Assembly (NCBI GenBank): GCA_958296135.2
Contig: CATQHZ020000002.1
Location: forward strand, 32,001-96,000
Source: an uncultured Poribacteria bacterium
GTDB lineage: Bacteria > Poribacteria > WGA-4E > WGA-3G
DNA length: 64,000 nt
Direction: 5' to 3'
Shown here: piece by piece, positions 14,076 to 35,407 of the stretch
Numbering within the stretch: the first letter of the stretch is position 1
How the letters are laid out: the number at the start of each line of letters is the position of its first letter
Made by a program: the position numbers and the translations under genes
Notes under the pieces: generated by a model
What the model was told of the DNA's origin: nothing
Databases searched by the model: none
Seen by the model: only the letters and a program-made list of their open reading frames with translations

Positions 14076-14157
14076 TTACCGTTTTAAGTAGTCGGGCTGA
14101 TATAATCAGCGTTTCAAATAATCTGGCGGCTATAAATTACCGTTTTAAATAGTCTGG
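14076..14157 (-). repeat. Three 21-nt copies of the terminase 3' end, each encoding PDYLKR-stop
   Basis: Minus strand: CCAGACTATTTAAAACGGTAA (14137-14157), CCAGATTATTTGAAACGCTGA (14106-14126), CCCGACTACTTAAAACGGTAA (14076-14096). Confidence 0.85.
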
Positions 14158-15561
14158 CAAATTATTTGCCGGTGATATTGATCCTGTTATTGAAATATAA
14201 GGAACATAATCGGTTTGTTTAATCACGTAGCGTACAACATCAAGTCCATCATCATGTAACTTAATTGGAATTTCGTCTTGTAGCGATCCGTTATGTTTAT
14301 CGGGATCTTTGTGGACATAACGTTCGATCTCTTCTGTAGTTCTTGTCGGAAAGTTTTTCTCTACTTGAGAGTAATCGGGTTCGTGATCACGAGAATTCTT
14401 GTTAAAAAATAACTGATTTGCTGAAAACCGTTTTTTTGTTAAGTTAATTCCTGGTAGAACTTCTTTATCAGCATTCTTTATTGGAAGCCCCATTTTTGCT
14501 AATGATTTATTAACTTCCGGCTTATGATCTGCGACTACCCATTCTAAGTCCTCACCTTCTGGTATGTATGAAGCGTTTAACTCGAAGATTTCCTCTCGCA
14601 TTTGGTCAACATCGAGTCCGGTCTTATAGATCTCTTTGTATAAGTAGATCTCTGAATAATCTTCTGGACCACAAAAAAGACTGTAAACGAATGGATGACG
14701 CTCACCATAATCGATTCCACCATACCAAATCCAGTCTTGATCTGATTCGAATCTGCGTCTGTCTATTTCTTCTTCTTCTAAATCATGTAATTCTGGAACG
14801 TAGTAGTCACCATAAACAGTGCCTTCTGCTGAACACCATTCTCCTAAATATCCTCTTCGATATTCGATTCCTACCAAGTTATTCTTTAAATCTTCTATTG
14901 TTTGTAATCCCAACGCTGTCCATTTGCCATCGTAAAATAATGTTGGGTTATCACTGTGAGTTACAGTGATCATTTCTAAAAGACCATCTGCTTGAAGACG
15001 CTTTAAAAAATGTTTTCGATAACTTGGATTACATTCACCTAGTAAAAGTCCTCGTTGAATACCATTATCGATCCAGCCACCACGCCGACCATTACATCGA
15101 CGACCTAAGCGTTGCCAAAATTCAAAATCCGCTTGCTCACATTGACTGTAGAAAGCTACATCCCATTCTGTACCTAGCACTTTTCCACTATCGTCCTCGC
15201 CACCGAAAACCATTTTACCACCATTGAAATATTCTAGATGTGTTGGCGTTCGACGACCATTATGTGGATGAACTGGGTTTGCTGATCGATTGTCTAACCC
15301 AAATGGTAAGATTTTATCTGCAAATTGCGGTAATATTGAATTATACACCGTTGTTTTTTCTTTACGCAAGATAATACTTTGTAAACCTGGTATCTTCATG
15401 TGGAGCGCGTGAACGTATGCCATACACGAAAATGTTTTCGCACACTGATATGGCGAATCCAAAACGACTGTTCTGCTCTTTGTCCGAAACATTTGCTTGA
15501 TCTTTTCGCTTTGAACTGGTATAACAGAAGGATGAAACATTGGATACCGAGATTTATTCAT
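14137..15561 (-). CDS. terL: Terminase large subunit (PBSX-like)
   Basis: ATPase region (SPYQCAKT, ECNP, DNP, GEW) and RNase H-like nuclease region (GGIDYG, ADH, DDGLDVVRY). Confidence 0.9.
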   Translation of the reverse strand: MNKSRYPMFHPSVIPVQSEKIKQMFRTKSRTVVLDSPYQCAKTFSCMAYVHALHMKIPGLQSIILRKEKTTVYNSILPQFADKILPFGLDNRSANPVHPHNGRRTPTHLEYFNGGKMVFGGEDDSGKVLGTEWDVAFYSQCEQADFEFWQRLGRRCNGRRGGWIDNGIQRGLLLGECNPSYRKHFLKRLQADGLLEMITVTHSDNPTLFYDGKWTALGLQTIEDLKNNLVGIEYRRGYLGEWCSAEGTVYGDYYVPELHDLEEEEIDRRRFESDQDWIWYGGIDYGERHPFVYSLFCGPEDYSEIYLYKEIYKTGLDVDQMREEIFELNASYIPEGEDLEWVVADHKPEVNKSLAKMGLPIKNADKEVLPGINLTKKRFSANQLFFNKNSRDHEPDYSQVEKNFPTRTTEEIERYVHKDPDKHNGSLQDEIPIKLHDDGLDVVRYVIKQTDYVPYISITGSISPANNLPDYLKR

Positions 15562-15994
15562 CTAAGAAATCCCCCATCTGCTTTTCTGCGTCTGTTTCTG
15601 GCATATTAAACCCATCATCACCTATATTGTGATTAAGATTTGATGTATTAACTGTATAACCTAAGTTTTTTGCAATTTGTAGAAATGTCGGTATATCGAT
15701 CAATGGAACATCCGTTTCTAGAGTTTCGTCTTGCTCAATGCGCTTATTAACTAGTCCTTCTAAATATTCACGAGAACGTTTATCTGTTCCTTTTAATAAG
15801 TCACAAGGATTGACTTCTAGTGCTCGAGCTAGTTTTACTAGCTTCTTTGCTGTAATCTGAGATTTTCCATTGACCCAACGATTAATCATTACTGATGAAC
15901 ATGGAACCATTGCCGCTAATGATTTTTGAGTTAATCCTTTGTTTTTAATTATACGTTTAAGATAACTTCGATTAACACTATAAGCTTTTATCAT
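15554..15994 (-). CDS. XRE/Cro-type HTH protein in the terminase small subunit position
   Basis: GLTQKSLAAMVPCSSVMINRWVNG HTH; stop overlaps the terL start; start placed at MIKAY behind GGAGGA. Confidence 0.7.
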   Translation of the reverse strand: MIKAYSVNRSYLKRIIKNKGLTQKSLAAMVPCSSVMINRWVNGKSQITAKKLVKLARALEVNPCDLLKGTDKRSREYLEGLVNKRIEQDETLETDVPLIDIPTFLQIAKNLGYTVNTSNLNHNIGDDGFNMPETDAEKQMGDFLDE

Positions 15995-16409
15995 AGAATG
16001 ATCCTCCATGTTTAATAAAATGATATATTCTTTTGTAATAAAGAGTACCTGGATCACGCAGAAAATTCAAAATAAATTAAAATTGGTAGTTTTGAAAGAG
16101 TGTACCATGAAAATCTGGTTTCTTAAAAAAAATATAGAATCTTGGTTACAAGAACATGATTGAAAATTAGAAATTGGCAACAAAAATATGTTAAAATTAA
16201 AAAAAGGCAAGAAAAAAGGGAGAAATCCGCAAATTAATGCAGACTTCTCCCTGAATCGGTGATTAACGCCACCCCAAAACTCCGTTCCCCTGTCATACGC
16301 CTCAATTTGGATTGGATCACCAAATAATGCCACCCTGGCAGTTTTTAGACCGATTTAAGTGACATCTAGATATCCCAATTTCGCTAATTTTTTTGGGCTT
16401 ATTATTTAT

Positions 16410-18995: not shown

Positions 18996-19027
18996 CTACT
19001 CTGATCGTTATGATCAATCACTCCCTG

Positions 19028-19525
19028 TTAGCAGACTATGGTCACCTCCTGATCTTCGCCGAACAACACCTCCCTGATGATCATGCCAGCCATCTCGATA
19101 TGATAGCCAACAACCTTGTCAGACTCATAATAGCAACAGGGCTTGATGATCCCTAAGAACTGAAGCTGATTGATCGCACAATCCATCGCCTGATAATAAG
19201 TCGGGAGATTCGGATCGACCTTATCATCAAAGTCCTTGATTGTATATCGACATAACCGGTTAAGATCCCGATCATCCCTGTCGGTCGCCTTGATCAACTC
19301 CTCCTCTAGTTCGCGCGGGCTGACCAGATCGGATCCTAATTTAGTCACCGCCTGGACGATATATCCCACAAGATCGGTTGGATTTTTCACATCCCTGATC
19401 CAGTGGGGGAGCTCATCTATCAATGTTGCCGCTTGATCCGCTTTGATGATCGCATTGACGATCCGCTGATCTTCGGTCACAATTATCAACTCGTTGCTCT
19501 TGTGATCAAATATTGGGGTTGTCAT
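19028..19525 (-). CDS. Island family A, winged-helix-like protein
   Basis: C-terminal AINQLQFLGII..GYHIEMAGMIIREVLF is shared with 19608, 24319, 25904 and 29426. Confidence 0.6.
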   Translation of the reverse strand: MTTPIFDHKSNELIIVTEDQRIVNAIIKADQAATLIDELPHWIRDVKNPTDLVGYIVQAVTKLGSDLVSPRELEEELIKATDRDDRDLNRLCRYTIKDFDDKVDPNLPTYYQAMDCAINQLQFLGIIKPCCYYESDKVVGYHIEMAGMIIREVLFGEDQEVTIVC

Positions 19526-19607
19526 TATATTCTCCTGTCGGACTCTAAATTTTAGGGCTTGATTGGGAGAGGATCAACATCCGCGCTGATCCCCTCCGAC
19601 ATCATGA

Positions 19608-20141
19608 TTAGGCTCTTATTGTGACCTCTTGAGCTGTCCCAAAGGACAACTCCTTGAGGACACGGCCAGCTATCAGGAGCCTGACGCCTGTCGCCTCATA
19701 TCGATAGCGATCATGGGGGACAGGATCGGATAGCTCCTCAAAATCAGTCCTGATCAACTCCTGGATATCAAGCAAGGATAGTCCGTGCAAGACAGCCTGA
19801 TCGATCGGATCATCATAGATCTGAGGTTCCTCATATAGATCCTCAAGATCTTGGGACGCCAACTGGGATAGCAGATCCATTCGACCCTGATAGCGAGCCT
19901 CAAGATCAGCCTTGATCTCATCGACGGTGACAAGATCCTGATCGCTTTGGAGGACAACGCTTGTTAGAACGTCATGGAACAGCTCCGGATTGATCATCGC
20001 AGCCACCGTTGTGGGATCTGCAACATCCTCAATGTTTTTGACATCAAACTCATCAACGCTGTTGACGGTGACGAGTCTATTGCTGTTGGGAGGGCTGATC
20101 CTCATTTGAAAGAGAGGATCAACATTGATTTGATAAGACAT
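19608..20141 (-). CDS. Island family A, winged-helix-like protein
   Basis: Start moved to MSYQINVD (AGGAG RBS) because the longer track ORF runs through a promoter and hairpin; C-terminal AGRVLKELSFG. Confidence 0.65.
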   Translation of the reverse strand: MSYQINVDPLFQMRISPPNSNRLVTVNSVDEFDVKNIEDVADPTTVAAMINPELFHDVLTSVVLQSDQDLVTVDEIKADLEARYQGRMDLLSQLASQDLEDLYEEPQIYDDPIDQAVLHGLSLLDIQELIRTDFEELSDPVPHDRYRYEATGVRLLIAGRVLKELSFGTAQEVTIRA

Positions 20142-20251
20142 TATATACTCCTGCTTGATTGGATCTTTATGATCCTTTATTGATTTGTTTGATCTATCAT
20201 ATGTTGGATCAATTATTTGATCCGTCAGGAGAGCGACTCCTTGCCGCCCCC

Positions 20252-20301
20252 CTCCTATATATAATATAGGCGATCGACCGTTGATTTCAGATCGAACATC
20301 C
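20252..20301 (-). promoter_or_regulatory. Class I repeated promoter, copy 1 of 16
   Basis: Slightly diverged match to the 50-bp minus-strand consensus GG(A/T)TGTC(T/C)GATCTGATAAC-N14-TATATTATATATAGGAG. Confidence 0.75.
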
Positions 20302-20385
20302 AATTTTTTTTGGAGCGGACATCCGATCCAGCTGATTGTGATGAGAGGACCGGATCCGCCCGATCCCCTCAACAGCTTGATGATC

Positions 20386-20721
20386 TTAAGCAAGGACATG
20401 ATCGATCCAATTATGAACCCAGCGGACATATTGACGCCGCCAGACCTCAATACGCAATCCGTAATGGTTGCCAACGGTGGGATCCTGATCATATATGCGA
20501 CGCTGGGAGTTGATCGCAGACTCAATATCAGCTCTGAGTTTGCCCATAAACAACCAGACCTCAAGATCCGATCTGAACTTGATCACATATCGCAATCTGA
20601 ACAGATCTTTTTTTAGCGACCGGCAGCCGCTTTTGATCCACTGGTTATCAGACTCTATCATCTCGGTGTGGAGCTGCTCGATCTGCTCCTCGATCGGTTT
20701 GACAACATTTTTGATCGACAT
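20386..20721 (-). CDS. Island family C, small helical protein
   Basis: Start at MSIKNVVKP behind GAGGA; amphipathic helices resembling the two halves of 20838..21512. Confidence 0.6.
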   Translation of the reverse strand: MSIKNVVKPIEEQIEQLHTEMIESDNQWIKSGCRSLKKDLFRLRYVIKFRSDLEVWLFMGKLRADIESAINSQRRIYDQDPTVGNHYGLRIEVWRRQYVRWVHNWIDHVLA

Positions 20722-20837
20722 TATATAATCCTCTATTGGCTCAATTATTATTGAACCGTCTTGATTTGTGGGCAAGGGACCGGATCCGCTCCGATCCCAT
20801 CAGCCCGATTGATTTTTATTGAACAGCTTGTCTCAAT

Positions 20838-21512
20838 CTATAGATCCTCTTGTCCTGTAAGGACATCTTTGAGTCGACTTAGATCAGCAATCCGTTGGCG
20901 TTCTAGCTTCTCATCCGTCTGATCGCACTCCTTGATCCAATTGATCCGTTGATCGATAACAACGACTGCTCGATCTGCGTTCCGGTTCATATTGATGTCG
21001 GCGTACAATCTGCTTAGATCGTCAATCCGCGTCTGGACCGCCCAATCATCATAGCTGTCGGGATCTATCGCATCAAGATCCTGGATCAGCCCCTCATATC
21101 GAGCGTGGATTGCTCCAATATATTTATCGGTGAACATTTTTTTGATCTCCTCGTTGATTGTGACGACGGGACCGGATCCGCCCGATCCATCATCATCTGT
21201 TAGCAAGATCGATCTCGCCTTGTTAAGATTATCGATCCGCTCCTGTTTGTGCTCATCATCAGGGACCAGTCGCCTGATCGTCCTCAACAGTTGATCGACT
21301 CGCTCAACCGTCCTTGTCGGATTATCATCGACATGGACATGATATTGGATCCGCGACAGATCCTTGATTTGATCCCTTAGGATCCGGCATGTGAACAACG
21401 ACGGGACCGATGTTTGCTCGATCCCATCAAGATCGGTGTTGAGATCATCGATCATGACCTCAATTGCCTTATATGCTTGTCGGACATTTGGGCTAACAAA
21501 TTTGATTGTCAA
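20838..21512 (-). CDS. Island family C, two helical domains fused through a hairpin
   Basis: TTG start behind GAGGA; the internal GSGGSGP linker is the translated hairpin; a second RBS and ATG (MFTDKY) lie inside. Confidence 0.6.
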   Translation of the reverse strand: MTIKFVSPNVRQAYKAIEVMIDDLNTDLDGIEQTSVPSLFTCRILRDQIKDLSRIQYHVHVDDNPTRTVERVDQLLRTIRRLVPDDEHKQERIDNLNKARSILLTDDDGSGGSGPVVTINEEIKKMFTDKYIGAIHARYEGLIQDLDAIDPDSYDDWAVQTRIDDLSRLYADINMNRNADRAVVVIDQRINWIKECDQTDEKLERQRIADLSRLKDVLTGQEDL

Positions 21513-21622
21513 TTTTTTATCCTCATTGATTGGATCTTTATGATCCTTTATTGATTGATCTGATCTATCATATGTTGGATCAATTATTTGATCCGTCTGG
21601 GAGCCGCTCATTGCCGCCCCCC

Positions 21623-21672
21623 CTCCTATATATAATATAGGCGATCGGAGCCTGATATCAGATCAGACATCC
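21623..21672 (-). promoter_or_regulatory. Class I promoter, copy 2
   Basis: Matches the 50-bp consensus. Confidence 0.8.
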
Positions 21673-21779
21673 AAAAAAGTGGGATCAATTATTTGATCCA
21701 TCATTTGGGTTCAACATCTATCAGGCTGATTGTGACGAGAGGACCGGATCCGCCCGATCCCCTCAACAGCTTGATGATC

Positions 21780-22439
21780 TTAGGCATCGACCTGATAATG
21801 ATCTTTTAGGATCTGCTTGAGGCGGACTATATGATCCTCGCTGTCCTTAATTTGCTGCCGGATCATGTCCTCAACGCTCAATCCTGTTGTTTTAGCGACG
21901 ACATCATCGATTGTTGCTGTCACAACCTCTGCTGTTGCCGGTTTGACATCCTGAGCCGCGATTGGTTCAGGGACATCAACTCTGATCGCTTCGACAATCG
22001 CATGGATTGGAGCCTTGACATCAACTCTATGATCGCGAGCTTTGATCATGATGTTAAGGACCTCGACACAACGTGGAGTGCAATATCTCTCGCTGGCTTG
22101 ATCGAGCCCGCCATCAATATAGCTCCAAAGTCCGGTGACCGGATCTTTGTCGATCCAACCCCGTCCCATGCCCTTGTCACAACTCCAGATCCTTTTGACC
22201 ATCCGGAGCGGGCTGTTGGGATAGCCACCGGTCTGATTGACGACATGATCATGAACCGGATCGGTTAGCTGCTGCATATCATGGAGCAGATCGCGGAGAG
22301 CAATCGGGCTCCCGTCGCTCGGCATGGACGCCAACATTGCGATATGGACTGTCATCCGCTCTGTTGTTCTGCCGAGGATCAGCAGATCGCTATTATTGAG
22401 GACCGGAGACGCATTGGGTTCAAACATTTGATTGTTCAA
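21780..22439 (-). CDS. Island family B protein (winged-helix-like N-terminus, C-terminal coiled coil)
   Basis: GRGW motif shared with 25063; C-terminal LSVEDMIRQQIKDSEDHIVRLKQILKDHYQ shared with 22655. Confidence 0.6.
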   Translation of the reverse strand: MNNQMFEPNASPVLNNSDLLILGRTTERMTVHIAMLASMPSDGSPIALRDLLHDMQQLTDPVHDHVVNQTGGYPNSPLRMVKRIWSCDKGMGRGWIDKDPVTGLWSYIDGGLDQASERYCTPRCVEVLNIMIKARDHRVDVKAPIHAIVEAIRVDVPEPIAAQDVKPATAEVVTATIDDVVAKTTGLSVEDMIRQQIKDSEDHIVRLKQILKDHYQVDA

Positions 22440-22521
22440 TTTATTTCTCCTGTTGGATCTTATGATCCGTCTTGATTGAGTTGATCAATCATATTATTTT
22501 GGGGAGCCAACCCATCGTCGG

Positions 22522-22571
22522 CTCCTATATATAATATAACGCATTTGGCCTTGATATCAGATCAGACATCC
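22522..22571 (-). promoter_or_regulatory. Class I promoter, copy 3
   Basis: Consensus match, followed by the leader hairpin GGAGCCGACGATGGGTTGGCTCC. Confidence 0.8.
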
Positions 22572-22654
22572 AAAAAATTTTGGCTTTAGACATCCAACCA
22601 ATTTGATGTTGGGAGGGGACCGGCATCCGCGCTGATCCCCTCCGGCTGTTGATT

Positions 22655-23230
22655 TTAAGCAACATCCTGATAATGATTTTTTAAGATCTGCTCCAGTCGA
22701 TCAATATAATCATGCGAGCTTTGGATCTGCTGCCTGATTATAGACTCTAGACTCAGATCTGTTGTCGCCTTGACATCAGGCTTGACCTCTTTGTCCACAA
22801 CAATCGGATCAATGACCTCATCCTGCTCTTGATCGCTATCATTTTGATCCTTGACTTTGTTAAGGACATCCATAAATTGCTCCAGATCCACACCATGATA
22901 GCCCAAATTGCTTTCAACATAGCGTCGGATCTCAACAATGGACGCATCGGTCGCAATCCAGCGGCCAGATTGACATTTGATCCACTGTTTTGCGGACGAC
23001 CACACGGATGTGATCCCAGCGAACTGGTTCTTAGATTTATATTGAGTTTCAAGGAGGTGATTGATCGGGATCAACAGCTCCTGGATAGCAGTCCATATAT
23101 CAGATCTGAACGCTTGATTATCATTATTGATCATGATGTCCAAAGCAACAGCCTGCATCGCGGGACCGATCTTGGTGTGATTTAAGATCATCACATCGTC
23201 GGTTGTCAAAACTCTTTCAGGTGCGAACAT
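22655..23230 (-). CDS. Island family B protein
   Basis: C-terminal LSLESIIRQQIQSSHDYIDRLEQILKNHYQ is paralogous to 21780..22439. Confidence 0.65.
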   Translation of the reverse strand: MFAPERVLTTDDVMILNHTKIGPAMQAVALDIMINNDNQAFRSDIWTAIQELLIPINHLLETQYKSKNQFAGITSVWSSAKQWIKCQSGRWIATDASIVEIRRYVESNLGYHGVDLEQFMDVLNKVKDQNDSDQEQDEVIDPIVVDKEVKPDVKATTDLSLESIIRQQIQSSHDYIDRLEQILKNHYQDVA

Positions 23231-23321
23231 TTTATATACTCCATTAGCGGATAACTTACGCTATCCTATTTGATTGCGATGGGAGGACCGGCATCCGCGC
23301 CAGCCCTCCATCCGGTTAGCA

Positions 23322-23693
23322 TTAAATATCAATTTCGCCTGTCAATATTTCAACAACATAGCGCAGATCCGCCTCAAGATCCGGATATTGACCGTCATCC
23401 GTCCAGCGGCTATAGACGACGCTGATCAGCCTGATTGTCTTGACGCGATCCTTATAGACTGTCAAATGACTCAAGACGCGGCTCAGGACCTCAACCCGAT
23501 CGGTTAGCCGATCATAGACGCCCATCTGTTTGACCGTCATATCATCGATGTTGTCCGTCATGGGTTCCAGCTCGTCCTCGATCTGTTCCAATTGAGTGAT
23601 CATCGCACCGATGGCGAAGTCGACTCTAACGACAGGATCTTGTTGATCGATCAGATCCAAGATCGGCGTTTGATCTATCTTTGCGGTTGTCAT
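23322..23693 (-). CDS. Island family C helical protein
   Basis: End-to-end paralog of 23887..24252 (DQTPILD / DQTTILD, RVD.AI, QYPDL, ILTG). Confidence 0.7.
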   Translation of the reverse strand: MTTAKIDQTPILDLIDQQDPVVRVDFAIGAMITQLEQIEDELEPMTDNIDDMTVKQMGVYDRLTDRVEVLSRVLSHLTVYKDRVKTIRLISVVYSRWTDDGQYPDLEADLRYVVEILTGEIDI

Positions 23694-23755
23694 TTTTATT
23701 TATCCCCTTGTTGAGTTGATCCAAACAATTATTGGGAGCCGCTCATTGCCGCCCC

Positions 23756-23805
23756 CTCCTATATATAATATAACGCATTTGGCCTTGTTATCAGATCAGA
23801 CATCC
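23756..23805 (-). promoter_or_regulatory. Class I promoter, copy 4
   Basis: Consensus match. Confidence 0.8.
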
Positions 23806-23886
23806 AAAAAATTTTGGATCCAGACATCCGACAGCCTGATCGGTTGGGAGAGGACCGGCATCCGCGCCGATCCCCTCAACTGATTA

Positions 23887-24252
23887 TTAAATAATTTCAA
23901 AATTGCCTGTCAATATATCTCTGACATAATTGATGTCGAACACCAGATCCGGATATTGATCCTCCCAAAATCCGTAGGTTGTATCAATCATCTTGACGGT
24001 TTTATCAGGATCCTTATAGATCCTAATATAATTCAAGACTCGACTCAACATCTCAATCAGAGCTGTTTGAGCGTCTAGCGACCGTTGTAATCCTAGAGTC
24101 ATATCAGGATGCTTGTCGACAAACACCTCCAGATCGTTCTCTCTTTCCTCTAATGTTGGCTCTAACGTTCTGATGGCGAGATCGACTCTAAATTCCGCAT
24201 CTGTTTGCTCAAGCCGATCCAATATTGTTGTTTGATCTAATCTGACTGTCAT
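23887..24252 (-). CDS. Island family C helical protein
   Basis: Paralog of 23322..23693. Confidence 0.7.
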   Translation of the reverse strand: MTVRLDQTTILDRLEQTDAEFRVDLAIRTLEPTLEERENDLEVFVDKHPDMTLGLQRSLDAQTALIEMLSRVLNYIRIYKDPDKTVKMIDTTYGFWEDQYPDLVFDINYVRDILTGNFEII

Positions 24253-24318
24253 TTTTTATTTATCCTTATTGATTGTGGACAAGGGACCGGATCCGCTCCG
24301 ATCCCTATCCGGTTATTA

Positions 24319-24846
24319 TTAAGCATCCACGCCACGGTTGGCTCTAACGGTCGCCATATGATCGCTCCCAAACGCCAACTCCTTGAGGACTCTGCCCACA
24401 AGAGTCAGCTTATATTGGGCTTGATCAAGTTCGCAAGTCGGATCAACCTCATTGATTAGATTTATATCAACAAGCTGCTCCAGAGTGGATCCAATCGACT
24501 CCTCGATAACTCGCTCCATCATTGGGATGTCAAAAATATCGACCACCCGATCTAAGCTGTCAATCAGAGCCTCCTGATCGTCAAGATCAAGCCGTCCAAA
24601 CCGAGCCTCGACATCCGCGTCGATCTCGTCACGGCTAACAGGATCCTGATCGCTTTGGGCAATCGATCCCAGAACGATCTCATAAAGATCCTCTTGATTG
24701 CGAAGGGACTCAACACTCATGGGAGTGCAGACATCCTCAATATCCTCGATGTCGCTGACATCCAGATCTGTGACCGTAATATATCGACCTTGATCTGCGA
24801 TGACGACTGTCCTTGTCTCATTTTTGCGATCAAATTTGATTGCCAT
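24319..24846 (-). CDS. Island family A, winged-helix-like protein
   Basis: Start MAIKFD behind GGAG; shares QSDQD.V..DEI.AD.EAR and GRVLKEL.FG with 19608. Confidence 0.65.
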   Translation of the reverse strand: MAIKFDRKNETRTVVIADQGRYITVTDLDVSDIEDIEDVCTPMSVESLRNQEDLYEIVLGSIAQSDQDPVSRDEIDADVEARFGRLDLDDQEALIDSLDRVVDIFDIPMMERVIEESIGSTLEQLVDINLINEVDPTCELDQAQYKLTLVGRVLKELAFGSDHMATVRANRGVDA

Positions 24847-24909
24847 TATATACTCCATCTTGATTTGTTTGATCCAATCATCTCAATTTGGGAGCCAACC
24901 CATCGTCGG

Positions 24910-24959
24910 CTCCTATATATAATATAACGCATTTGGCCCTGTTATCAGATCAGACATCC
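24910..24959 (-). promoter_or_regulatory. Class I promoter, copy 5
   Basis: Consensus match with leader hairpin. Confidence 0.8.
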
Positions 24960-25062
24960 AAAAAAGTGGGATCAATTATTTGATCCATCATTTGGGTTCT
25001 GACATCCGACAGCCTGATTGTCTTGGAGAGGACCGGATCCGCCCGATCCCCTCCGATCATTG

Positions 25063-25581
25063 TTATTCAGATGCATACTTTGATATGATCTGCTCCAACT
25101 GCGTAAAGAGTTGATCAATCCTCTTTTTAGATTTCTCCATAGGACTGCCAGTACTGTCAATAACATCAACGGTTGATAGATCCTCTACTTCTTTTGTGAC
25201 AATTTCTTCAACAACATCGTTGTTATTATATCCATAATCGATGTTATCAAAGAACATCAACCCAAGATCGAAATCCGCTTCAATCTTAGCCTGTTCGATT
25301 GCTCCATCATTGAATGATAGCATGCCGTTAATACCATCGGTTTGACGATCGAGCCAACCCCTGCCGTTCCCATTATCATATCCATAGAACTGAGCAAGCG
25401 ATCCGATCCGATCGATCATACGACCAGTCAACGTGTTGTCGACTATCAACAGCTCCAGATTTGAATCTAAAACCGACTCGATTTCTCTCATCAATTCGCA
25501 CTTGCGGCGAACGCCATCCCGCTCTAGGATAGCGATCCATAACCACTTGGCGGCGTCTCTTTCTCTAACACGGATTGTCAT
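25063..25581 (-). CDS. Island family B protein
   Basis: GNGRGWLDR..DGAIEQA resembles GMGRGWIDK..DGGLDQA of 21780. Confidence 0.6.
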   Translation of the reverse strand: MTIRVRERDAAKWLWIAILERDGVRRKCELMREIESVLDSNLELLIVDNTLTGRMIDRIGSLAQFYGYDNGNGRGWLDRQTDGINGMLSFNDGAIEQAKIEADFDLGLMFFDNIDYGYNNNDVVEEIVTKEVEDLSTVDVIDSTGSPMEKSKKRIDQLFTQLEQIISKYASE

Positions 25582-25645
25582 TTTTTATTTATCCTCTTGT
25601 TGCGTTGATCCAATCATCTCAATTTGGGAACCAACCCATCGTCGG

Positions 25646-25695
25646 CTCCTATATATAATATAACGCATTTGGCCCTGTTATCAGATCGGACAACC
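25646..25695 (-). promoter_or_regulatory. Class I promoter, copy 6
   Basis: Consensus match. Confidence 0.8.
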
Positions 25696-25727
25696 AAAAA
25701 ATTTTGGTTCCGACATCCATCAGGACC

Positions 25728-25826
25728 TCAGACCTCATAACCGAGCAGATAAAGAAATATGCTCACAATGATAATGAAAGTCAAATAGATCCCGATATTC
25801 ATTAACAATCTTTTATATGTGTCCAT
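25728..25826 (-). CDS. 32-aa membrane peptide
   Basis: Not in the track; MDTYKRLLMNIGIYLTFIIIVSIFLYLLGYEV*, AAGG RBS. Confidence 0.45.
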   Translation of the reverse strand: MDTYKRLLMNIGIYLTFIIIVSIFLYLLGYEV

Positions 25827-25903
25827 AAAATCAACCTTTGATATGTCTCCATATGAACAAGAAAGGAGAGCTAGCATCCGCGCCAGCCCTCCTAACATCA
25901 ATC

Positions 25904-26356
25904 CTAGTTGTCAAACAGCAAATCCAATATGATGTGGCCAACCTTTGTCGGCTTGACTCCTTGTTTATTACAACGATGGATGACTCCCATAAGTATCATA
26001 TCATGGACGACATCATAAAACGCTCGATCGAACGCGCTTCTCCTTCGAACCTTGATATCTTGATCATCATCAGGCTGATATGGTTCAAACGATCTGGCGG
26101 TATAATGCTTTAGATCAGATATATGGATCCAATCAAGAGGTCCAAGTTGACTCAACTCCTCACATAGATGGCGTCGGAGCCTCAGATCCTTGAAATCCTT
26201 AAGGACCTCCACGTTGCATAAATATTGCAAATCATTGAACTGATCATCCGTCAATCCGCTGGCGGTGACCGTTTTGACATTATCATTGATTGTGATGGTT
26301 ATCGCTACGCTATGTTCAAATTGGACATCCATGCTATTGAACCTCCGATCCATCAA
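25904..26356 (-). CDS. Island family A, Mrr N-terminal-like winged-helix protein
   Basis: SAFDRAFYDVVHDMILMGVIHR..GVKPTKVGHIIL resembles the Mrr_N winged-helix pattern; start probably at MDVQF. Confidence 0.6.
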   Translation of the reverse strand: MMDRRFNSMDVQFEHSVAITITINDNVKTVTASGLTDDQFNDLQYLCNVEVLKDFKDLRLRRHLCEELSQLGPLDWIHISDLKHYTARSFEPYQPDDDQDIKVRRRSAFDRAFYDVVHDMILMGVIHRCNKQGVKPTKVGHIILDLLFDN

Positions 26357-26522
26357 AGCTGGCTTGAAAGCGGATCAAAACCAGCTTGAGTTGTTCTTCA
26401 AAAACATCCTGCTCGGCCTCTATCATATCAGACCAATGATCATGCTCCGGAACCCAGTCCTCAGGGCTTACATCAAGCTCCTGATTAGTCTCCACGTTAT
26501 CGGTTAACAATGCGGCTTTCAT
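26334..26522 (-). CDS. Small acidic protein
   Basis: 62 aa, AAGGAG RBS. Confidence 0.55.
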   Translation of the reverse strand: MKAALLTDNVETNQELDVSPEDWVPEHDHWSDMIEAEQDVFEEQLKLVLIRFQASFDGSEVQ

Positions 26523-26536
26523 ATTGTTCTCCTTGC

Positions 26537-26662
26537 CTATCTATTTATGTTGGATCTAAAAATCTGAGCAAAGACTCCAACTCCAATTACCATGATTTTG
26601 AACCCAACAGGAGCCTCTTGAAAGAGAAAGATTGCGATGGCGGCTGCTAAAGCTACAAACAT
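26537..26662 (-). CDS. 41-aa membrane peptide
   Basis: Not in the track; MFVALAAAIAIFLFQEAPVGFKIMVIGVGVFAQIFRSNINR*, GGAGG RBS. Confidence 0.5.
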   Translation of the reverse strand: MFVALAAAIAIFLFQEAPVGFKIMVIGVGVFAQIFRSNINR

Positions 26663-26744
26663 TGATTGATCCTCCAAAAAGACAGGTGGGGACCAAAGCC
26701 CCCACCTTGATTATGAGACATCCGCGTCTCATTAATGTTTGCAA

Positions 26745-27377
26745 CTAAGAGACCTGTTCTGCAACAACAGCCTTGACTCGTCCACGCCCATTCCGCTGGA
26801 CGCCAGACTCTTTCAAGTGAGCATTGATCGTCGCGGAGTTGATCCCTTTAAGCTCACCAATGGCGGATCCGCTCATTCCCTTTTCGGTGTGCAGATGACG
26901 CCATTCAGCCTTGTCATCATCGCTATGCTTCCGACGGTTGTTGCTCTTAGTCGGCAACAGCTTGACCGCATCCTCCCTCAACTTATCGAGTCCAGGAACA
27001 TCTGTCCCTCGCTCCTGAGCAAGGACACTCTTAACGATGTTGTCTTTGACGATCAGCCCCTTGAACTTGCCGTGGATCTTGAACGGGATAAGCTTAAGAT
27101 CCATGTTGTCGTTGACAAATTTTTCGTGGATGAACTTAACGACATCCGCTGCCAGCTCGACCTTGCGTCCACGAGCCTTCGGTTTGAGCAAGACAGCTGC
27201 CGACTCGGCGTTGAGCGGAGCAATCCATGTTTGCTTGTCCTCTTTCAACTTGAGGACCTTATTAAGTTCCGCCTGAACGTTGGCGGGGCTATCAGTCTCG
27301 GTGTTGAGTTCAATCGATCCGGCGGCAACGGTTCCGGCATCCGTCTGTTTGTAAAGATCAAATTTATATGCGGACAT
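26745..27377 (-). CDS. Family D HTH DNA-binding protein
   Basis: Start MSAYKF behind AAGGAG; C-terminal HTH GMSGSAIGELKGINSATINAHL; recent duplicate of 28432..29058. Confidence 0.75.
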   Translation of the reverse strand: MSAYKFDLYKQTDAGTVAAGSIELNTETDSPANVQAELNKVLKLKEDKQTWIAPLNAESAAVLLKPKARGRKVELAADVVKFIHEKFVNDNMDLKLIPFKIHGKFKGLIVKDNIVKSVLAQERGTDVPGLDKLREDAVKLLPTKSNNRRKHSDDDKAEWRHLHTEKGMSGSAIGELKGINSATINAHLKESGVQRNGRGRVKAVVAEQVS

Positions 27378-27461
27378 TATATAATCTCCTTGACGGCCTG
27401 ACACAATCAAGCCATAAATTAAAATTACAATCAATTTTTATAGGAGCCAACCCATCGTCGG

Positions 27462-27511
27462 CTCCTATATATAATATAGCCGACTCTTTGTTGTTATCAG
27501 ATCGGACAACC
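27462..27511 (-). promoter_or_regulatory. Class I promoter, copy 7
   Basis: Consensus match. Confidence 0.8.
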
Positions 27512-27597
27512 GATAAATTTTCGCTTTGGACAACCAACCGACCTTGGAGAGCTGACATCCGCGCCAGCTCTCCAATAATCGACATCCTGTCCTGATC

Positions 27598-28248
27598 TTA
27601 ATAATTATCAAGATCGCACTCCATCCATGCTTTGGGATTGAGCCTGCAAACTTGATTATATTTCGCATAAACAGCTTTGAGGAGTCCAACAACACCAATA
27701 ACGGTTTGCGGATCAACATTATGTTTTTGTGCGACCGGTTCAACCCATGCGGTATCGCCTTTTGCAGTCCGGAACCAAGAGTCCGGCGTCTGGTGAGCAA
27801 GGAACGACCGCCAGATATAATGGACCATAAAATCAATCAGCGGATATTCGACATAAACCCGATTGACATTTGCGATCCTGAACGGATGACTCATTTCGCC
27901 GCCGGCAGCCATGACTTGATCCAGATCAGGATCAGCCCACAACTCGCCCAGAAAGCCTTCAACATCGACCATTGGGATATCGATTACAATCCCGTTGGCC
28001 TCATTAATGACTTCAAGTTCGCAGAACTTAACGCTGACATCCATAGGATCGATCCCATAATCATCAACGATTTCGCCAAAGCCATCAAAGACTCCATTGA
28101 ACTCCATCCGGTTATCGGGCAACGCCAACCGACGGGGGAACCCAACCATAACCGAGAGCTTGTCGCTTGTCGCTTCAAAGACCTCGATTTTGGGAGTCAA
28201 TCTATAAGGAGGGACGATATCAACACCTTCAATCAAATTGCTTAACAT
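27598..28248 (-). CDS. Hypothetical protein
   Basis: Start at MLSNLIE behind AGGAG; the longer track ORF overlaps the promoter. Confidence 0.65.
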   Translation of the reverse strand: MLSNLIEGVDIVPPYRLTPKIEVFEATSDKLSVMVGFPRRLALPDNRMEFNGVFDGFGEIVDDYGIDPMDVSVKFCELEVINEANGIVIDIPMVDVEGFLGELWADPDLDQVMAAGGEMSHPFRIANVNRVYVEYPLIDFMVHYIWRSFLAHQTPDSWFRTAKGDTAWVEPVAQKHNVDPQTVIGVVGLLKAVYAKYNQVCRLNPKAWMECDLDNY

Positions 28249-28303
28249 TATATTGTCTCCTAAATTTACAATCATCCATAATTGGGAGCCAACCCATCGT
28301 CGG

Positions 28304-28354
28304 CTCCATATATATAATATAACGCATTTGGCCTTGTTATCAGATCGGACAACC
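28304..28354 (-). promoter_or_regulatory. Class I promoter, copy 8
   Basis: Consensus match. Confidence 0.8.
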
Positions 28355-28431
28355 AAAAAATTTTGGCTCCGACATCCAACCGGTGGGGACGAGCCGACAT
28401 CCGCGCCAGCTCGTCCTTTATTGTCATCCGG

Positions 28432-29058
28432 TTATGCATTTGTGACAACAGCCTTGACTCGTCCACGCCCATTCCGCTGGACGCCAGACTCTTTCAAGTG
28501 AGCATTGATCGTCGCGGAGTTGATTCCAAGCTCCTTACCGATCCTGAAGCCACTCCAACCGTCTTCGGTGTGCATGCGACGCCATTCAGCCTTGTCATCA
28601 TCGCTATACTTCCGACGATTGTTGCTCTGAGCCGGCAACAGCTTGACCGCTTGCTCCCTCAACTCATCGATGCCAGCAACATCCGTTCCACGTTCCTGAG
28701 CAAGGACACTCTTAACGATGTTGTCCTTAACCAACAGGCCCTCGAACTTATTATGAACCTTAAAGGGGATTACTTTAAGATCCACATTGTCGTTGACAAA
28801 TTTTTCGTGGATGAACTTAACGACATCCGGTTCCAGCTCGACTTTGCGTCCACCGACCTTCGGTTTGAGCAAAACTGCTGCTGTCTCGACGTTGAGTGCA
28901 GCAACATGATACTTTTTGTTCTTGTTCAGCTCGATCATATCATTAACAGCCGCCTGAACGATGGCGGGGCTATGAGTCTCGGTGCTAAGATCAACAGATC
29001 CGGCTGCGACCACTCCATCATCGTTGCGCTCATAAAGATCATATTTGACGGTTAACAT
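28432..29058 (-). CDS. Family D HTH DNA-binding protein
   Basis: Start MLTVKY; long stretches of nucleotide identity with 26745..27377. Confidence 0.75.
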   Translation of the reverse strand: MLTVKYDLYERNDDGVVAAGSVDLSTETHSPAIVQAAVNDMIELNKNKKYHVAALNVETAAVLLKPKVGGRKVELEPDVVKFIHEKFVNDNVDLKVIPFKVHNKFEGLLVKDNIVKSVLAQERGTDVAGIDELREQAVKLLPAQSNNRRKYSDDDKAEWRRMHTEDGWSGFRIGKELGINSATINAHLKESGVQRNGRGRVKAVVTNA

Positions 29059-29142
29059 TTTAAATGTCTCCTTGACGACTTGACGCATCAAGCCATAAAT
29101 TAAAATTACAATCAATTTTTATAGGAGCCAACCCATCGTCGG

Positions 29143-29192
29143 CTCCTATATATAATATAGCCGACTCTTTGTTGTTATCAGATCGGACAACC
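29143..29192 (-). promoter_or_regulatory. Class I promoter, copy 9
   Basis: Identical to copy 7. Confidence 0.8.
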
Positions 29193-29425
29193 GATAAATT
29201 TTCGCCCAAGACAACCAACCGACTGTGCGGTTTATTTTTTATCGCTGTTGCCAAGTACTACTATCCATATTGTTATTATATTCGCCATTACAGCGATTAA
29301 CATAAGATCTATGTTATCCATTTGATCATCCCTCCCTGATTGTGACTAATGGGACTGGATCCGCCCAACCCCATCAGCCCGTTCGCTCCATAAGATCCGA
29401 TCTAATGGATCAGATCTGATACGAT

Positions 29426-30058
29426 CTAATAGATATCTGTGATACCTTTAAGATCGAATACAATTGCCATCAGGACTCGTCCCGCCTTTGTGACAGAGAC
29501 TGCTCTTAGTTCTGTGTCATCCTGAACGCGGAGTCCATCAAAGAGCTGTTCCATGATAAACTGATCCATAAGGCTCCAGAACTGATATCCGACCACGTCT
29601 GGCATATGATCAATCTCGTCTGGACTCATTTGACCATCATCAAGGATGGCTTCCGCAGCCAATCCCCTCAGATTGTGTTGATCATCCTCATCATGACTCC
29701 AAACCAACTGGTTCAAGATATCTTGAGGGGTGACCACAATATTTTGATCAAATTCAACCGAGGATAGCAGAGCCTCTTCAAACTCAGACTCCCAAACTCC
29801 ATCGGGGTTGTCATCGATCATGCGTTTCATAGCAGCGACCGATATGTTAACGATCCGAGCTGCGTCCAAGACCTCATGATTGAAGCTGTTAACACGCCAC
29901 CGATCGGTTTTGGCAACATCTTCAACAAGATAATCTAAATATGTCCTTTCAACGGGATTGACATTGTGAACAACAACGGTTTTGATCGATCCATCATTGT
30001 TCTCGATTTTGATTTCAACACCCTGTCGCTCTTTGATCGACACATTTTTGATCGACAT
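29426..30058 (-). CDS. Island family A, winged-helix-like protein
   Basis: Start MSIKNVS; C-terminal VSVTKAGRVLMAIVF. Confidence 0.6.
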   Translation of the reverse strand: MSIKNVSIKERQGVEIKIENNDGSIKTVVVHNVNPVERTYLDYLVEDVAKTDRWRVNSFNHEVLDAARIVNISVAAMKRMIDDNPDGVWESEFEEALLSSVEFDQNIVVTPQDILNQLVWSHDEDDQHNLRGLAAEAILDDGQMSPDEIDHMPDVVGYQFWSLMDQFIMEQLFDGLRVQDDTELRAVSVTKAGRVLMAIVFDLKGITDIY

Positions 30059-30118
30059 TTTATATCTCCTCTTAATTGTCACAATCAATCAATTATTTGG
30101 GAGCCAACCCATCGTCGG

Positions 30119-30169
30119 CTCCATATATATAATATAGCCGACTCTTTGTTGTTATCAGATCAGACAACC
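30119..30169 (-). promoter_or_regulatory. Class I promoter, copy 10
   Basis: Consensus match. Confidence 0.8.
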
Positions 30170-30250
30170 GATAAATTTTCGCTTTGGACAACCAACCGAC
30201 CGTGAAGGGCTGACATCCGCGTCGGCCCTCCAATTTAGATCAAGATCTTG

Positions 30251-30661
30251 TTAATCCAATTTGTTTATGATATATTCAAGATCATCTTTTGTTATATTGT
30301 CTTTTCCAGATTTCTCCACGCCATCCAATCTGTTTTCAATATAATAGATCAACTCAGAACGAACATCCATCAGAGTCTCATAAAGCTTATCTTTAGCCTC
30401 GTTAAGCTTCTCCATAACAACGGCTTCCTCAAGCTCATACCACTCGATTGCGTCTGCCAACGTCGGCAGTTCCCAGACATCTGTTCTAGTGATATCGCAT
30501 ACAATCTCAGCCGCTTGTTTTGGACCATAATCAGCGTCCTGAGCCAACGGCGATTCAGGCTCCGCAAGAACCTCAATTGCTTGATGTTCCGCAACGATTT
30601 CATTATACTCTTGTTCAATCAACGCAACGTTGTATACTTCCTTATGAACTTGGCTTATCAT
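30251..30661 (-). CDS. Acidic helical hypothetical protein
   Basis: Start MISQVH coupled to the upstream stop (TAATG), GGAGGAG RBS. Confidence 0.6.
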   Translation of the reverse strand: MISQVHKEVYNVALIEQEYNEIVAEHQAIEVLAEPESPLAQDADYGPKQAAEIVCDITRTDVWELPTLADAIEWYELEEAVVMEKLNEAKDKLYETLMDVRSELIYYIENRLDGVEKSGKDNITKDDLEYIINKLD

Positions 30662-31056
30662 TATACTCCTCCCAAAAAGATGGTTGCCAACCAATCGACA
30701 ACTTTGATTGTGACATATGCTATTGTCGCCAAACCAATTACGGCTAGGCAGCCAGAACAACCATCATTATCATCATCGTCGTCGTCATCATTATTGTCAA
30801 CTTTTACTTTCAATTTGACGGTTGTATTTGTTCTAAGCACTTTGAGTGTGGTGACAAACGCCGCCTCGATAGCTTCAACATCATCAGGATCATGATCATC
30901 ATAGACTTCCTCAAAGATGTCCATAAAATCAGATCCAATATTTTCATAAACATCAGTTTGATCATCCGCGATCACGAACCTGAGTTCATAAGCTAATTCC
31001 TTTGGATCTACTCTATCGTCACCATTTAGATATGCGAACAAATTATACTTGATCAT
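30661..31056 (-). CDS. Acidic protein with poly-Asp tract and C-terminal membrane anchor
   Basis: NNDDDDDDDNDGCSGCLAVIGLATIAYVTI...; start MIKYNL. Confidence 0.6.
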   Translation of the reverse strand: MIKYNLFAYLNGDDRVDPKELAYELRFVIADDQTDVYENIGSDFMDIFEEVYDDHDPDDVEAIEAAFVTTLKVLRTNTTVKLKVKVDNNDDDDDDDNDGCSGCLAVIGLATIAYVTIKVVDWLATIFLGGV

Positions 31057-31118
31057 TTTATGGTCTCCAATAACATTAAATTTACAATCATTTTTTATAG
31101 GAACCAACCCAGCGTTGG

Positions 31119-31168
31119 CTCCTATATATAATATAGCCGACTCTTTGCTGTTATCAGATCAGACAACC
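31119..31168 (-). promoter_or_regulatory. Class I promoter, copy 11
   Basis: Consensus match. Confidence 0.8.
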
Positions 31169-31189
31169 GATAAATTTTTCGCTTGGCGA

Positions 31190-31540
31190 TCAATCCGACC
31201 GATTTGTTTTGACATCTGGGTTAAGTTCGATCATATGATTTACCCAGTTTACAAGTTCATCAATATCGGTTTTGGGTTCATATAAACTTTCGCTGATCTC
31301 CATATATGTCCATATGAATTTCTCCATAAGGTTACCCTGCGGATTTGGTCTTATGTTCTTTAATGTCCACAAATATAACCGGTATGGCATCCATTTAATC
31401 ATATGGCGAAACCGGTTACCAAACCGTGGTTCTTCAGACCCTTTCAACAAATTGCGGGAATCATTAAAAACTTTCCACTCTTCGATATCGATCAACGCTG
31501 CTCCATAATCTTCTTCAAGACTGTCTTTTAATTCAATCAT
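31190..31540 (-). CDS. Hypothetical protein
   Basis: 116 aa, AAGGAG RBS. Confidence 0.6.
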   Translation of the reverse strand: MIELKDSLEEDYGAALIDIEEWKVFNDSRNLLKGSEEPRFGNRFRHMIKWMPYRLYLWTLKNIRPNPQGNLMEKFIWTYMEISESLYEPKTDIDELVNWVNHMIELNPDVKTNRSD

Positions 31541-31551
31541 GATAGCTCCTT

Positions 31552-35406: not shown

Positions 35407-35407
35407 A

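Follow-up and report, generated by a model that had tools for sequence, protein, structure and literature searches.

The window analysed here, 64,000 nucleotides long, comprises bases 32001-96000 of a contig, CATQHZ020000002.1, filed in assembly GCA_958296135.2 under an uncultured Poribacteria bacterium. That contig (143,886 bp, 36.8% GC) represents all or most of a phage genome and is called the phage contig below; the main contig of the assembly (5.01 Mb, 54.4% GC) is that of the co-binned bacterium. Our subject is a block at about 19.0-31 kb in window numbering, which is used throughout unless stated otherwise. This block, here called the island, is a run of about 17 small ORFan genes on the minus strand, which evolve fast and are partly paralogous, with at least four paralogue families. 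From 19001 to 25000, its core, the DNA is strongly depleted of a single degenerate word, GWAD/HTWC (W being A or T, D any base but C, and H any base but G), and is densely set with GATC.

Loss of one short word from the island

Within the core, GTA and TAC together number 14 (2.3/kb; the remaining phage contig has 26.4/kb, a ratio of 0.09), and GAA and TTC number 58 (9.7 versus 46.7/kb; ratio, 0.21). These two are the outliers among all 32 trimer pairs, TAA/TTA coming next at 0.37, and both strands are affected, the coding-strand counts being 6 for GTA, 8 for TAC, 36 for GAA, and 22 for TTC. An earlier note, made from the letters alone, had reported this scarcity from hand counts of GTA plus TAC. 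We reproduced all five (1 in 19021-19500, 0 in 21121-21480, 0 in 22081-22440, 1 in 24301-24780, and 8 in 1-120), along with its remarks that GAA/TTC is scarce and that Glu is mostly GAG here and GAA elsewhere: GAA makes up 20 of 97 Glu codons in the core and 963 of 1195 elsewhere in the window. A 2-kb scan of the whole phage contig found no other region resembling the island. The island does not copy the bacterium either, because the main contig carries GTA/TAC at 16.1/kb and GAA/TTC at 39.0/kb.

The GTA/TAC and GAA/TTC depletions are the depletion of one degenerate word, GWAD/HTWC, which falls from 61.7/kb in the rest of the phage contig to 5.83/kb in the core, a 10.6-fold drop. The core-to-rest ratio is 0.10 for GAAD and 0.08 for GTAD, while GAAC/GTTC is spared at 0.60. 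As the earlier note had noticed, surviving GAA/TTC often sits in GAAC/GTTC (35 of 58, against an expected 23.6%; binomial P = 2.4e-9), and 11 of the 12 in-frame TTC codons in the core have a G before them. No comparable window exists nearby or in the bacterium: the minimum density of the word is 51.8/kb among 114 6-kb windows of the phage contig away from the island, 29.7/kb among 5006 such windows of the main contig, and 43.5/kb among the 51 of these that match the island in GC content. One run of 1082 nt (20907-21989) has no copy at all. In the core, the purge reaches every frame, the spacers, and both strands; the 1356 nt of core spacers hold, on the coding strand, no HTWC, 6 GWAD, and 40 GATC. 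The purged set is not that of the one-mismatch neighbours of GATC or GTAC, as GAAC, GTTC, and GGAC/GTCC are kept or enriched. The dinucleotide GA has an odds ratio of 1.48 in the island; GAT, GAC, and GAG are in excess there, and GTC and GTT show no depletion.

Relative to the remainder of the phage, the island is shifted in GC content (0.46 versus 0.36), in codon usage, and in many k-mers, and the earlier note had said that its reading would fall if higher GC plus the GATC excess fully explained the scarcity. We compared k-mers inside and outside the island against matched nulls, and the depletion survives every one of them. In 1000 permutations of synonymous codons, which leave the proteins and the codon usage of the island unchanged, the out-of-frame counts in frames 1 and 2 were as follows: GTA 0 and 3, against 7.1 and 14.8 expected; TAC 1 and 5, against 9.1 and 18.0; GAA 3 and 9, against 16.1 and 23.7; and TTC 7 and 0, against 17.9 and 9.1. 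Each of these counts was matched or undercut in at most 1 of the 1000 permutations, with a shortfall from 2.5-fold to infinite. With the 301 of 1548 codons that touch GATC frozen, GAA still stood at 11 against 29.3, TAC at 5 against 22.2, GTA at 3 against 16.8, and TTC at 7 against 20.6, taking ranks 1, 2, 4, and 6 for depletion among the 64 trimers; under the same null, CAA/TTG and TCA/TGA exceed expectation. A first-order Markov model with GATC masked predicts 86.3 GTA plus TAC (14 observed) and 190.1 GAA plus TTC (58 observed). In 500 dinucleotide-preserving shuffles that kept GATC, the corresponding counts were 71.2 ± 6.7, with a minimum of 48, and 165.0 ± 9.1, with a minimum of 132. As a control, the codon test on genes outside the island gave observed-to-expected ratios of 0.73-1.24. 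Because all nulls leave the depletion standing, GC content and GATC together do not account for it.

For the avoided codons, adaptation to host codon usage was also rejected as the cause. The main contig uses GAA (0.56), TAC (0.48), and TTC (0.56) freely and has tRNAs for each; GTA is the only avoided codon that is rare there. Because the bacterium makes frequent use of GAA, TAC, and TTC, their avoidance in the island is not codon adaptation. At the protein level, Asp, Ile, and Val are up in the island and Phe, Tyr, Lys, Asn, and Glu are down, with Asp at 11.6% versus 7.0% elsewhere and Phe at 1.8% versus 4.3%; the pressure on the word is thus strong enough to reshape proteins.

The feature is longer than the 19000..25000 that the earlier note had given it, a weaker tier and a ramp extending rightward:

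19001..25000: core, tier 1; GWAD/HTWC 5.8/kb versus 61.7/kb, GATC 32/kb, GC 0.46
25001..30500: tier 2; coding-strand HTAC at 0.07, HTTC at 0.23, GTAD at 0.34, and GAAD at 0.40 of background; GATC about 15/kb
30501..33000: ramp to background composition

Per 500 nt, GWAD/HTWC numbers about 3 from 19.0 to 25.0 kb and about 8.5 up to 30.5 kb, and reaches about 27, the background, by 33 kb; the left edge, at about 18.8-19.0 kb, is abrupt. In the core, all four oriented forms of the word stand at 0.06-0.13 of background, coding-strand GTAD at 0.07 and GAAD at 0.13. Gene by gene across 25063-31056, the coding strand carries 1-4 HTWC and 4-13 GWAD. One four-member paralogue family spans both tiers, with 3.7-12.0 sites/kb in its three tier 1 copies and 17.4 in its tier 2 copy. 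Because paralogues of one family differ by tier, the level of the word is set by position and not by ancestry.

GATC shows the opposite behavior. The core holds 192 copies, or 32/kb (one per 31 bp), against 6.6/kb elsewhere, and 152 copies were counted against 99 expected given the proteins and their codon usage (z = 10). GATC in the island is therefore under positive selection in its own right. It is not a by-product of replacing GAA/TTC with GAT/ATC, as GAT/ATC outside GATC is up only 1.17-fold, versus 4.8-fold for GATC. A search for an extended context around GATC in the island found none, and helical phasing was rejected, only a 3-nt coding period being seen. The main contig avoids GATC (observed-to-expected ratio, 0.24) and GTAC (0.37); the phage avoids GTAC (0.51), GGCC, GCGC, and CGCG (0.44-0.57 for this set) yet selects GATC. 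The shared avoidance of GTAC is a small point in favor of cells like the co-binned bacterium as hosts. Selection for GATC in the phage, set against its avoidance in the bacterium, suggests that Dam-type methylation is put to an adaptive use, and the phage carries two candidate enzymes:

47552..48364, minus strand: D12-class (Dam-like) adenine methylase (Pfam PF02086, E = 5.8e-23)
60781-61641: second D12-class adenine methylase (Pfam PF02086, E = 3.2e-24)

A search of the assembly for a GATC endonuclease of the DpnII family found none, and the D12 methylase of the main contig has no recognisable nuclease among its neighbours.

In sum of these counts, the island is an early-type gene array under DNA-level purifying selection against GWAD/HTWC, graded by position. 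The earlier note had drawn from trimer avoidance that a very short motif is the target, and this holds: the selection acts on a very short word at the nucleic-acid level, independently of GC content, codon usage, and GATC.

Genes, promoter-like boxes, and signs of a possible early expression

The island genes, all on the minus strand, are as follows:

19028-19525: ORFan, tier 1
19608-20141: ORFan, tier 1
20386-20721: ORFan, tier 1
20838-21611: ORFan, tier 1
21780-22427: ORFan, tier 1
22655-23230: ORFan, tier 1
23322-23693: ORFan, tier 1
23887-24252: ORFan, tier 1
24319-24858: ORFan, tier 1
25063-25581: ORFan
25904-26353: ORFan
26745-27377: ORFan
27598-28275: ORFan
28432-29088: ORFan
29426-30058: ORFan
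30251-30661: ORFan
30661-31056: ORFan

The nine tier 1 open reading frames (ORFs) include at least three paralogue families and are acidic, Asp plus Glu making up 14-23% of residues in each. Paralogues share only 22-37% protein identity. Pfam gave no match for the 14 island ORFs scanned (19.0-30.1 kb), and among the 19 ORFs scanned against PHROGs (19.0-31.5 kb), there was a single weak match, within the nine tier 1 ORFs. The four-member family has a confidently predicted fold (predicted local distance difference test score [pLDDT], 85.2; predicted template-modelling score [pTM], 0.82) with no PDB match at an E value of 0.001 or better. Its best PDB rows (E of about 0.02-0.05, template-modelling scores of 0.33-0.42) are mostly winged-helix proteins, which offers a lead only. 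The last gene, 30661-31056, encodes a 131-residue protein with the run DDDDDDDND; its GAT repeat draws low-complexity DNA matches in many genomes.

Most island genes are preceded by one copy of a promoter-like box, found 15 times in the window (20252-51884) and 11 times in the island:

20252..31135, minus strand: promoter box, 11 island copies; coding strand GGWTGTCYGATCTGATAACA, N14-15, TATATTATATATAGGAG; plus-strand starts of the cores at 20252, 21623, 22522, 23756, 24910, 25646, 27462, 28305, 29143, 30120, and 31119
34452..34468, minus strand: promoter box outside the island; further copies at 42629, at 48384 (before a D12 methylase gene), and at 51868

A scan with the box gave 13 matches in the window, where 0.04 was expected. 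Its consensus, CTGATA-N16-TATATT, shares 9 of 12 positions with the sigma-70 consensus, and the phage encodes sigma-family proteins as well. The full order is two GGWTGTC repeats, a GATC abutting CTGATA, N16, TATATT, GGAG, and, in most island copies, a hairpin; terminator-like hairpins number 20, against 7.7 expected. The GATC abutting the -35-like hexamer (TCTGATCTGATAACA) is kept in 14 of the 15 copies. How active these promoters are could vary with methylation of the DNA.

Codon usage in the island correlates with that of the main contig at r = 0.37, compared to r = -0.55 for the rest of the phage. The island also shuns codons served by the phage's own tRNAs (TTA, 0.07 versus 0.46; CCA, 0.18 versus 0.63; TCA, 0.03 versus 0.27). 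Such usage fits genes expressed before the phage remodels the cell.

On either side of the island lie genes of more familiar kinds:

14137..15561, minus strand: terminase large subunit (phrog_5653, E = 1.5e-15)
15554..16057, minus strand: helix-turn-helix protein directly upstream of the terminase gene (Pfam HTH_3, E = 3.3e-12)
31552..32595, minus strand: sigma-factor-like protein bordering the island on the right (phrog_351, E = 1.1e-9)
34558..35454, minus strand: sigma-70 family protein (regions 2, 3, and 4)
37046..37795, minus strand: QueD (PTPS)
41147..41231, minus strand: tRNA-Tyr, anticodon GTA, one of seven phage tRNAs

The abrupt left edge of the island is 3.4 kb upstream of the terminase large-subunit gene, and the helix-turn-helix protein may possibly be the small terminase subunit. 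Besides the terminase, the contig encodes a capsid protein, portal, prohead protease, tape measure, and tail tube, and 146 of its 153 open frames lie on the minus strand. It also carries genes for polymerase III alpha and beta subunits, an NrS-1-like primase-polymerase, ribonucleotide reductase, DnaK/DnaJ, sigma-family proteins, and five DNA methylases (the two D12/Dam-like ones among them). FolE, QueC, and QueE are encoded elsewhere than QueD, and seven tRNAs and a transfer-messenger RNA (tmRNA) complete the set. Rfam found nothing besides the tRNA-Tyr between 15 and 45 kb.

Candidate readers of the word

Why would a phage clear so short a word from one block of its genome? We tentatively favor evasion of a DNA-targeting host defence with a short motif, acting on an early region that is exposed first, as in phage T5. 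The island would then be the part of the phage genome that works first from the incoming DNA, before the cell has been disarmed, and GWAD/HTWC would have been purged because the defence, through a very short recognition element, reads it. A purge limited to one region would make sense if only the island is exposed while the defence is active. The candidate that we would rank first is the protospacer-adjacent motif (PAM) of a type I CRISPR-Cas system, TWC (TAC plus TTC); a frequent-cutting nuclease or nickase would come second. The dense GATC would carry the methyl marks of the two Dam-like methylases. Put in its full form, in which the island serves as landing zone for a phage with two-step entry, purged more than 10-fold of a TWC PAM (with a non-G before it) or of an ultra-short defence site, and shielded a second time by methylated GATC, the proposal becomes more doubtful. 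If it is true, sequence alone would reveal the entry mode, the exposed region, and the defence recognition word of an uncultured phage-host pair.

We place a DNA-targeting host defence ahead of the other explanations because the purge of the core covers spacers and both strands, and because of the catalogue of PAMs, the CRISPR loci of the bacterium, and the T5 precedent. A published catalogue lists TAC and TTC among natural type I-B and I-G PAMs (PMC8482600). The main contig has a type I-B locus with a 70-repeat array and, beside a second array, type I-D effector genes (Cas10d, Csc2, Csc1, and Cas3') together with a Cas4g/Cas1g fusion (628.8 bits; cut-off, 560). For T5, interference by type I-E spacers is reported only when they are directed against the first-injected, 10,160-bp pre-early region, spacers against early and late genes being without effect (PMC5389539). 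The position of the island 3.4 kb upstream of the terminase gene hints at a genome end, though this is suggestive only; in many cos and pac phages, the genome end lies upstream of the terminase genes. The earlier note had proposed a short-motif host toxin or nuclease acting before counter-defences are made. A short-motif host activity of this kind is compatible with all that we saw and is the explanation we favor, although no such activity was identified.

Several observations weigh against this proposal. None of the 100 spacers of the main contig matches the phage contig or the rest of the assembly, two of the arrays (86 of the 100 spacers) have no match in 50,697 phage records, and among the matches listed for 14001-34000 in 112 genomes of the family, none is spacer-like. 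Those matches fall mostly in one low-complexity GAT-repeat stretch or are short and at chance level. Published type I-D PAMs are given as GTN, GTT, GTG, and GCN (PMC8482600), and GTC and GTT are not depleted in the island. The fourth position of the word counts (GTTC and GAAC are spared), which it does not normally do in a PAM. The tier 2 purge is strand-biased, unlike the prediction for a plain reader of duplex DNA. The GATC excess is not explained by the proposal, and weaker selection for GATC extends to the remainder of the phage (out-of-frame observed-to-expected ratio, 1.8-2.0). Depth of Logan contigs is lower in the island (16-30 in the core and 24-53 in the rest of it, versus 44-93 in the flanks) and not doubled. 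That the co-binned bacterium is the host is an assumption; no recognising agent was found, and early entry and exposure are inferred.

Among the rival explanations, we consider it unlikely that the word is a site of the phage's own modification, of G or A in GWAD, purged from early genes, mainly on the transcribed strand, as the modified base hinders RNA polymerase or regulators, with later genes read from fresh copies. Such a scheme would explain a purge limited to early genes without staged entry, and outside the core, the transcribed-strand GWAD is indeed hit harder (coding-strand HTAC and HTTC at 0.07 and 0.23, versus 0.34 and 0.40 for GTAD and GAAD; per gene, 1-4 HTWC versus 4-13 GWAD). 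The phage has FolE, QueC, QueD, and QueE as well as its five methylases, and the phage DpdA motifs that have been mapped are as short as 2 nt (PMC10484667). Those motifs, GA and GA/GGC, are a misfit, however, GA, GAT, GAC, and GAG being enriched in the island; the core is purged equally on both strands; and the island is rich in GATC, a likely target of the phage's Dam-like methylases. No gene like DpdA or TGT was found on the contig, be it with Pfam TGT at E values up to 1, with PHROGs (45 unassigned proteins), with NCBIfam (21 proteins), or in a PDB sequence search (the 2 best-sized candidates). Nor are we aware of evidence that bacterial RNA polymerase is hindered by 7-deazaguanines or N6-methyladenine in its template, and we count this against the scheme. 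The suggestion of the earlier note, that the motif marks the phage's own deazaguanine insertion, thus gains little: the transcribed-strand bias outside the core agrees with it, while the missing DpdA and the GA type of the known motifs do not. A reader of RNA, by which early mRNAs would be purged of HUWC (UAC and UUC) because a host endoribonuclease such as a MazF/PemK-type toxin cuts there until it is neutralised, appears quite improbable. MazF/PemK toxins with UAC-containing sites are known, coding-strand HTWC is the most persistently depleted form over about 19.0-31.1 kb, and at least two genes of the PemK_toxin family on the main contig are full-length (77.8 and 25.2 bits). Those genes say little, because PemK-type genes are common in bacteria, and an mRNA interferase would be expected to deplete the sense strand only. 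In the core, the complement is purged from the coding strand just as thoroughly, which a reader of mRNA alone fails to explain, and the promoter-bearing spacers lack the word as well.

It is likewise unlikely that the word has no dedicated reader and was lost as a by-product of a drive for GATC or other favored words, through mutational bias, or as the signature of a foreign donor. The simultaneous shift in GC content, codon usage, and many k-mers speaks for this, as does the excess of CAA/TTG and TCA/TGA over the codon null, and the alternative flanks and lower depth described below are what one would see in a swappable variable module. On the other hand, the trimers keep their ranks with the GATC codons frozen, even the lowest shuffles stay far above observation (48 versus 14 and 132 versus 58), the level of the word tracks position with its two tiers, ramp, and abrupt left edge, and the promoters are the phage's own, in use outside the island too. 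No window of the 5.0-Mb main contig or of the remaining phage contig is alike, and a donor with a 10-fold GWAD deficit would merely relocate the question. Nor can shared ancestry hold the word at a tenth of expectation, because the paralogues are so little alike. Avoidance of primase sites, by which the NrS-1-like or a host primase would start at a trinucleotide (such as GWA or TWC) and a heavily transcribed block would be kept free of such sites, seems very improbable. Primases are the classical readers of 3-nt words, the phage enzyme at 38494-41190 carries the helix-bundle domain (Pfam NrS1-1_pol-like_HBD, E = 8.9e-19), and, if replication is co-directional with transcription, the coding strand is the lagging-strand template, which would match the tier 2 bias. 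The helix-bundle-domain primase-polymerases pRN1 ORF904 and NrS-1 are reported to read GTG (PMC8718748), which favors a trinucleotide reader of this family. Still, the known words (GTG and TTTGGTTA) differ from GWAD, and what a phage would gain from 6-12 kb that lack priming sites on either strand is not apparent to us. The remaining probability goes to something else.

A preQ0 pathway is present on the phage (FolE, QueC, QueD, and QueE) without a detectable DpdA. A very divergent DpdA may conceivably be present, and phages that modify their DNA without an identified DpdA are reported (PMC10484667). The pathway may instead serve tRNA and not DNA. Two of the phage tRNAs, tRNA-Asn(GTT) and tRNA-Tyr(GTA), belong to the queuosine family. 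The main contig, for its part, carries two extra TGT-superfamily genes in defence-like surroundings (main-contig positions 2708000-2727000 and 951000-954000). One is fused to DUF5591 and has an Eco57I/MmeI-type methylase and a PLD-helicase protein as neighbours; the other adjoins an uncharacterised 530-residue protein and a HepT-like toxin gene. From this gene content, they may form a host 7-deazaguanine DNA system.

Known systems, sample, and further features

The nearest likeness is to T5, whose pre-early region, like the island, groups small early genes in about 10 kb. Davison and Brunel are said to have found in 1979 that the first-step-transfer region of T5 has no EcoRI sites, which the rest of the genome has. 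A sequence constraint limited to one region is expected in T5-like phages, because only the first-injected region is exposed to defence. The purged word here is 3-4 bp and not 6, and it is reduced 10-fold, which goes beyond a mere absence where few sites would occur anyway. Double depth, expected of a terminally redundant T5-type region, was not seen, nor a terminal repeat in the contig, and two-step entry is only our inference here. Family scans of the phage proteins turned up no homologue from the T5 pre-early region. The island cannot be filed as a T5-type pre-early region, because redundancy was tested and the result was negative. The host-takeover module of SPO1 consists of many small genes with their own strong promoters and hairpins and lies in the terminal redundancy. 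The island resembles it in its run of small genes, its promoters, and its terminator-like hairpins, with no sequence similarity; a placement in terminal redundancy is unsupported for the island, and we know of no k-mer purge in the SPO1 module.

As with depletion of PAMs or restriction sites, a short word is underrepresented here whichever strand or frame is counted. Depletions of PAMs have been reported as weak and spread over whole genomes, whereas this purge is 10-fold, is confined to 6-12 kb, and depends on a fourth position. The chlorella viruses have nucleases or nickases that recognise 2- to 4-bp words (CCD, RAG) and have methylase partners. Like the phage contig with its five, they encode many methylases, and a degenerate last base resembles the D of GWAD; they are, however, eukaryotic algal viruses that protect themselves by methylation without a regional purge, and no such nuclease was identified on the phage contig. 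The DpdA phages CAjan and iggy have the very short motifs GA and GA/GGC mentioned above (PMC10484667); they share the preQ0 genes with our phage, in which no DpdA was detected and the depleted word is not GA.

Avoided sites are a well-known trace of defence, and such avoidance is usually weak, genome-wide, and directed at sites of 4-8 bp. In the island, the 10-fold loss of a word of about 5 bits spans frames, spacers, and strands in one 6- to 12-kb block only, and in a nonexhaustive search of the literature, we found no description of a 10-fold, region-confined purge of so short a word. The island opens questions that can be tested on sequence: which part of a phage is exposed before counter-defences, and what short element is read by the host or by phage chemistry. 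A simple scan, for the local collapse of one short word together with a jump in GATC, could find such regions in other phages.

The sequencing runs that hold the window contain 3.6-3.8 million contigs each, which makes it probable that the assembly was binned from a community sample. No RNA dataset is listed among the holders of the window. Word depth in the core is about 0.3-0.5 of that in the flanks in all 4 of 4 runs from one sample, contig depth being a weak measure, and it is lowest at 20.0-24.7 kb; the Logan contigs break at the promoter repeats. In four runs, Logan contigs diverge into other low-GC sequence at 18489-18499, 31182, and 32725. Co-occurring variants of the island, or a library bias against GATC-dense or modified DNA, would explain the alternative flanks and the low depth. 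A collapsed terminal repeat of the T5 or SPO1 type was rejected, as depth is not doubled and the contig ends bear no repeats. An inverted repeat of 550 bp, 80% identical (16412-16959 and 37818-38365), flanks a 21-kb segment that holds the whole island.

Searches for related DNA gave no match in phage records, none in IMG/VR with two single proteins and with an alignment, and none in JGI metagenomes and species genomes. The 17-nt promoter core has 117 loci in IMG/VR, with one copy in each of the 80 listed, which we read as chance. A genome search with the phage sigma factor returned only cellular sigma factors. Among 176 genomes of the phylum, the capsid protein has one match, at 27% identity. 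Protein relatives of the phage were found in ENA/Logan assemblies only, where the sigma-factor-like protein at 31552..32595 has 14 related protein clusters, encoded on contigs of up to 89 kb, and where an island protein family has relatives as well.

A few features outside the window or on the main contig deserve mention. The CRISPR loci of the bacterium lie at 3645400-3656000 and 4385000-4396600 of the main contig, and a third array adjoins IscB and TnpB genes. In phage contig numbering, the tmRNA is at 113571-113916, with the tag EDNFEYALAA, and ARAGORN calls a tRNA-Val with the anticodon AAC, unusual for bacteria, at 7271-7344. Positions 125876-140839 form a single open frame, 4987 codons long, that contains repeats of about 880 bp.

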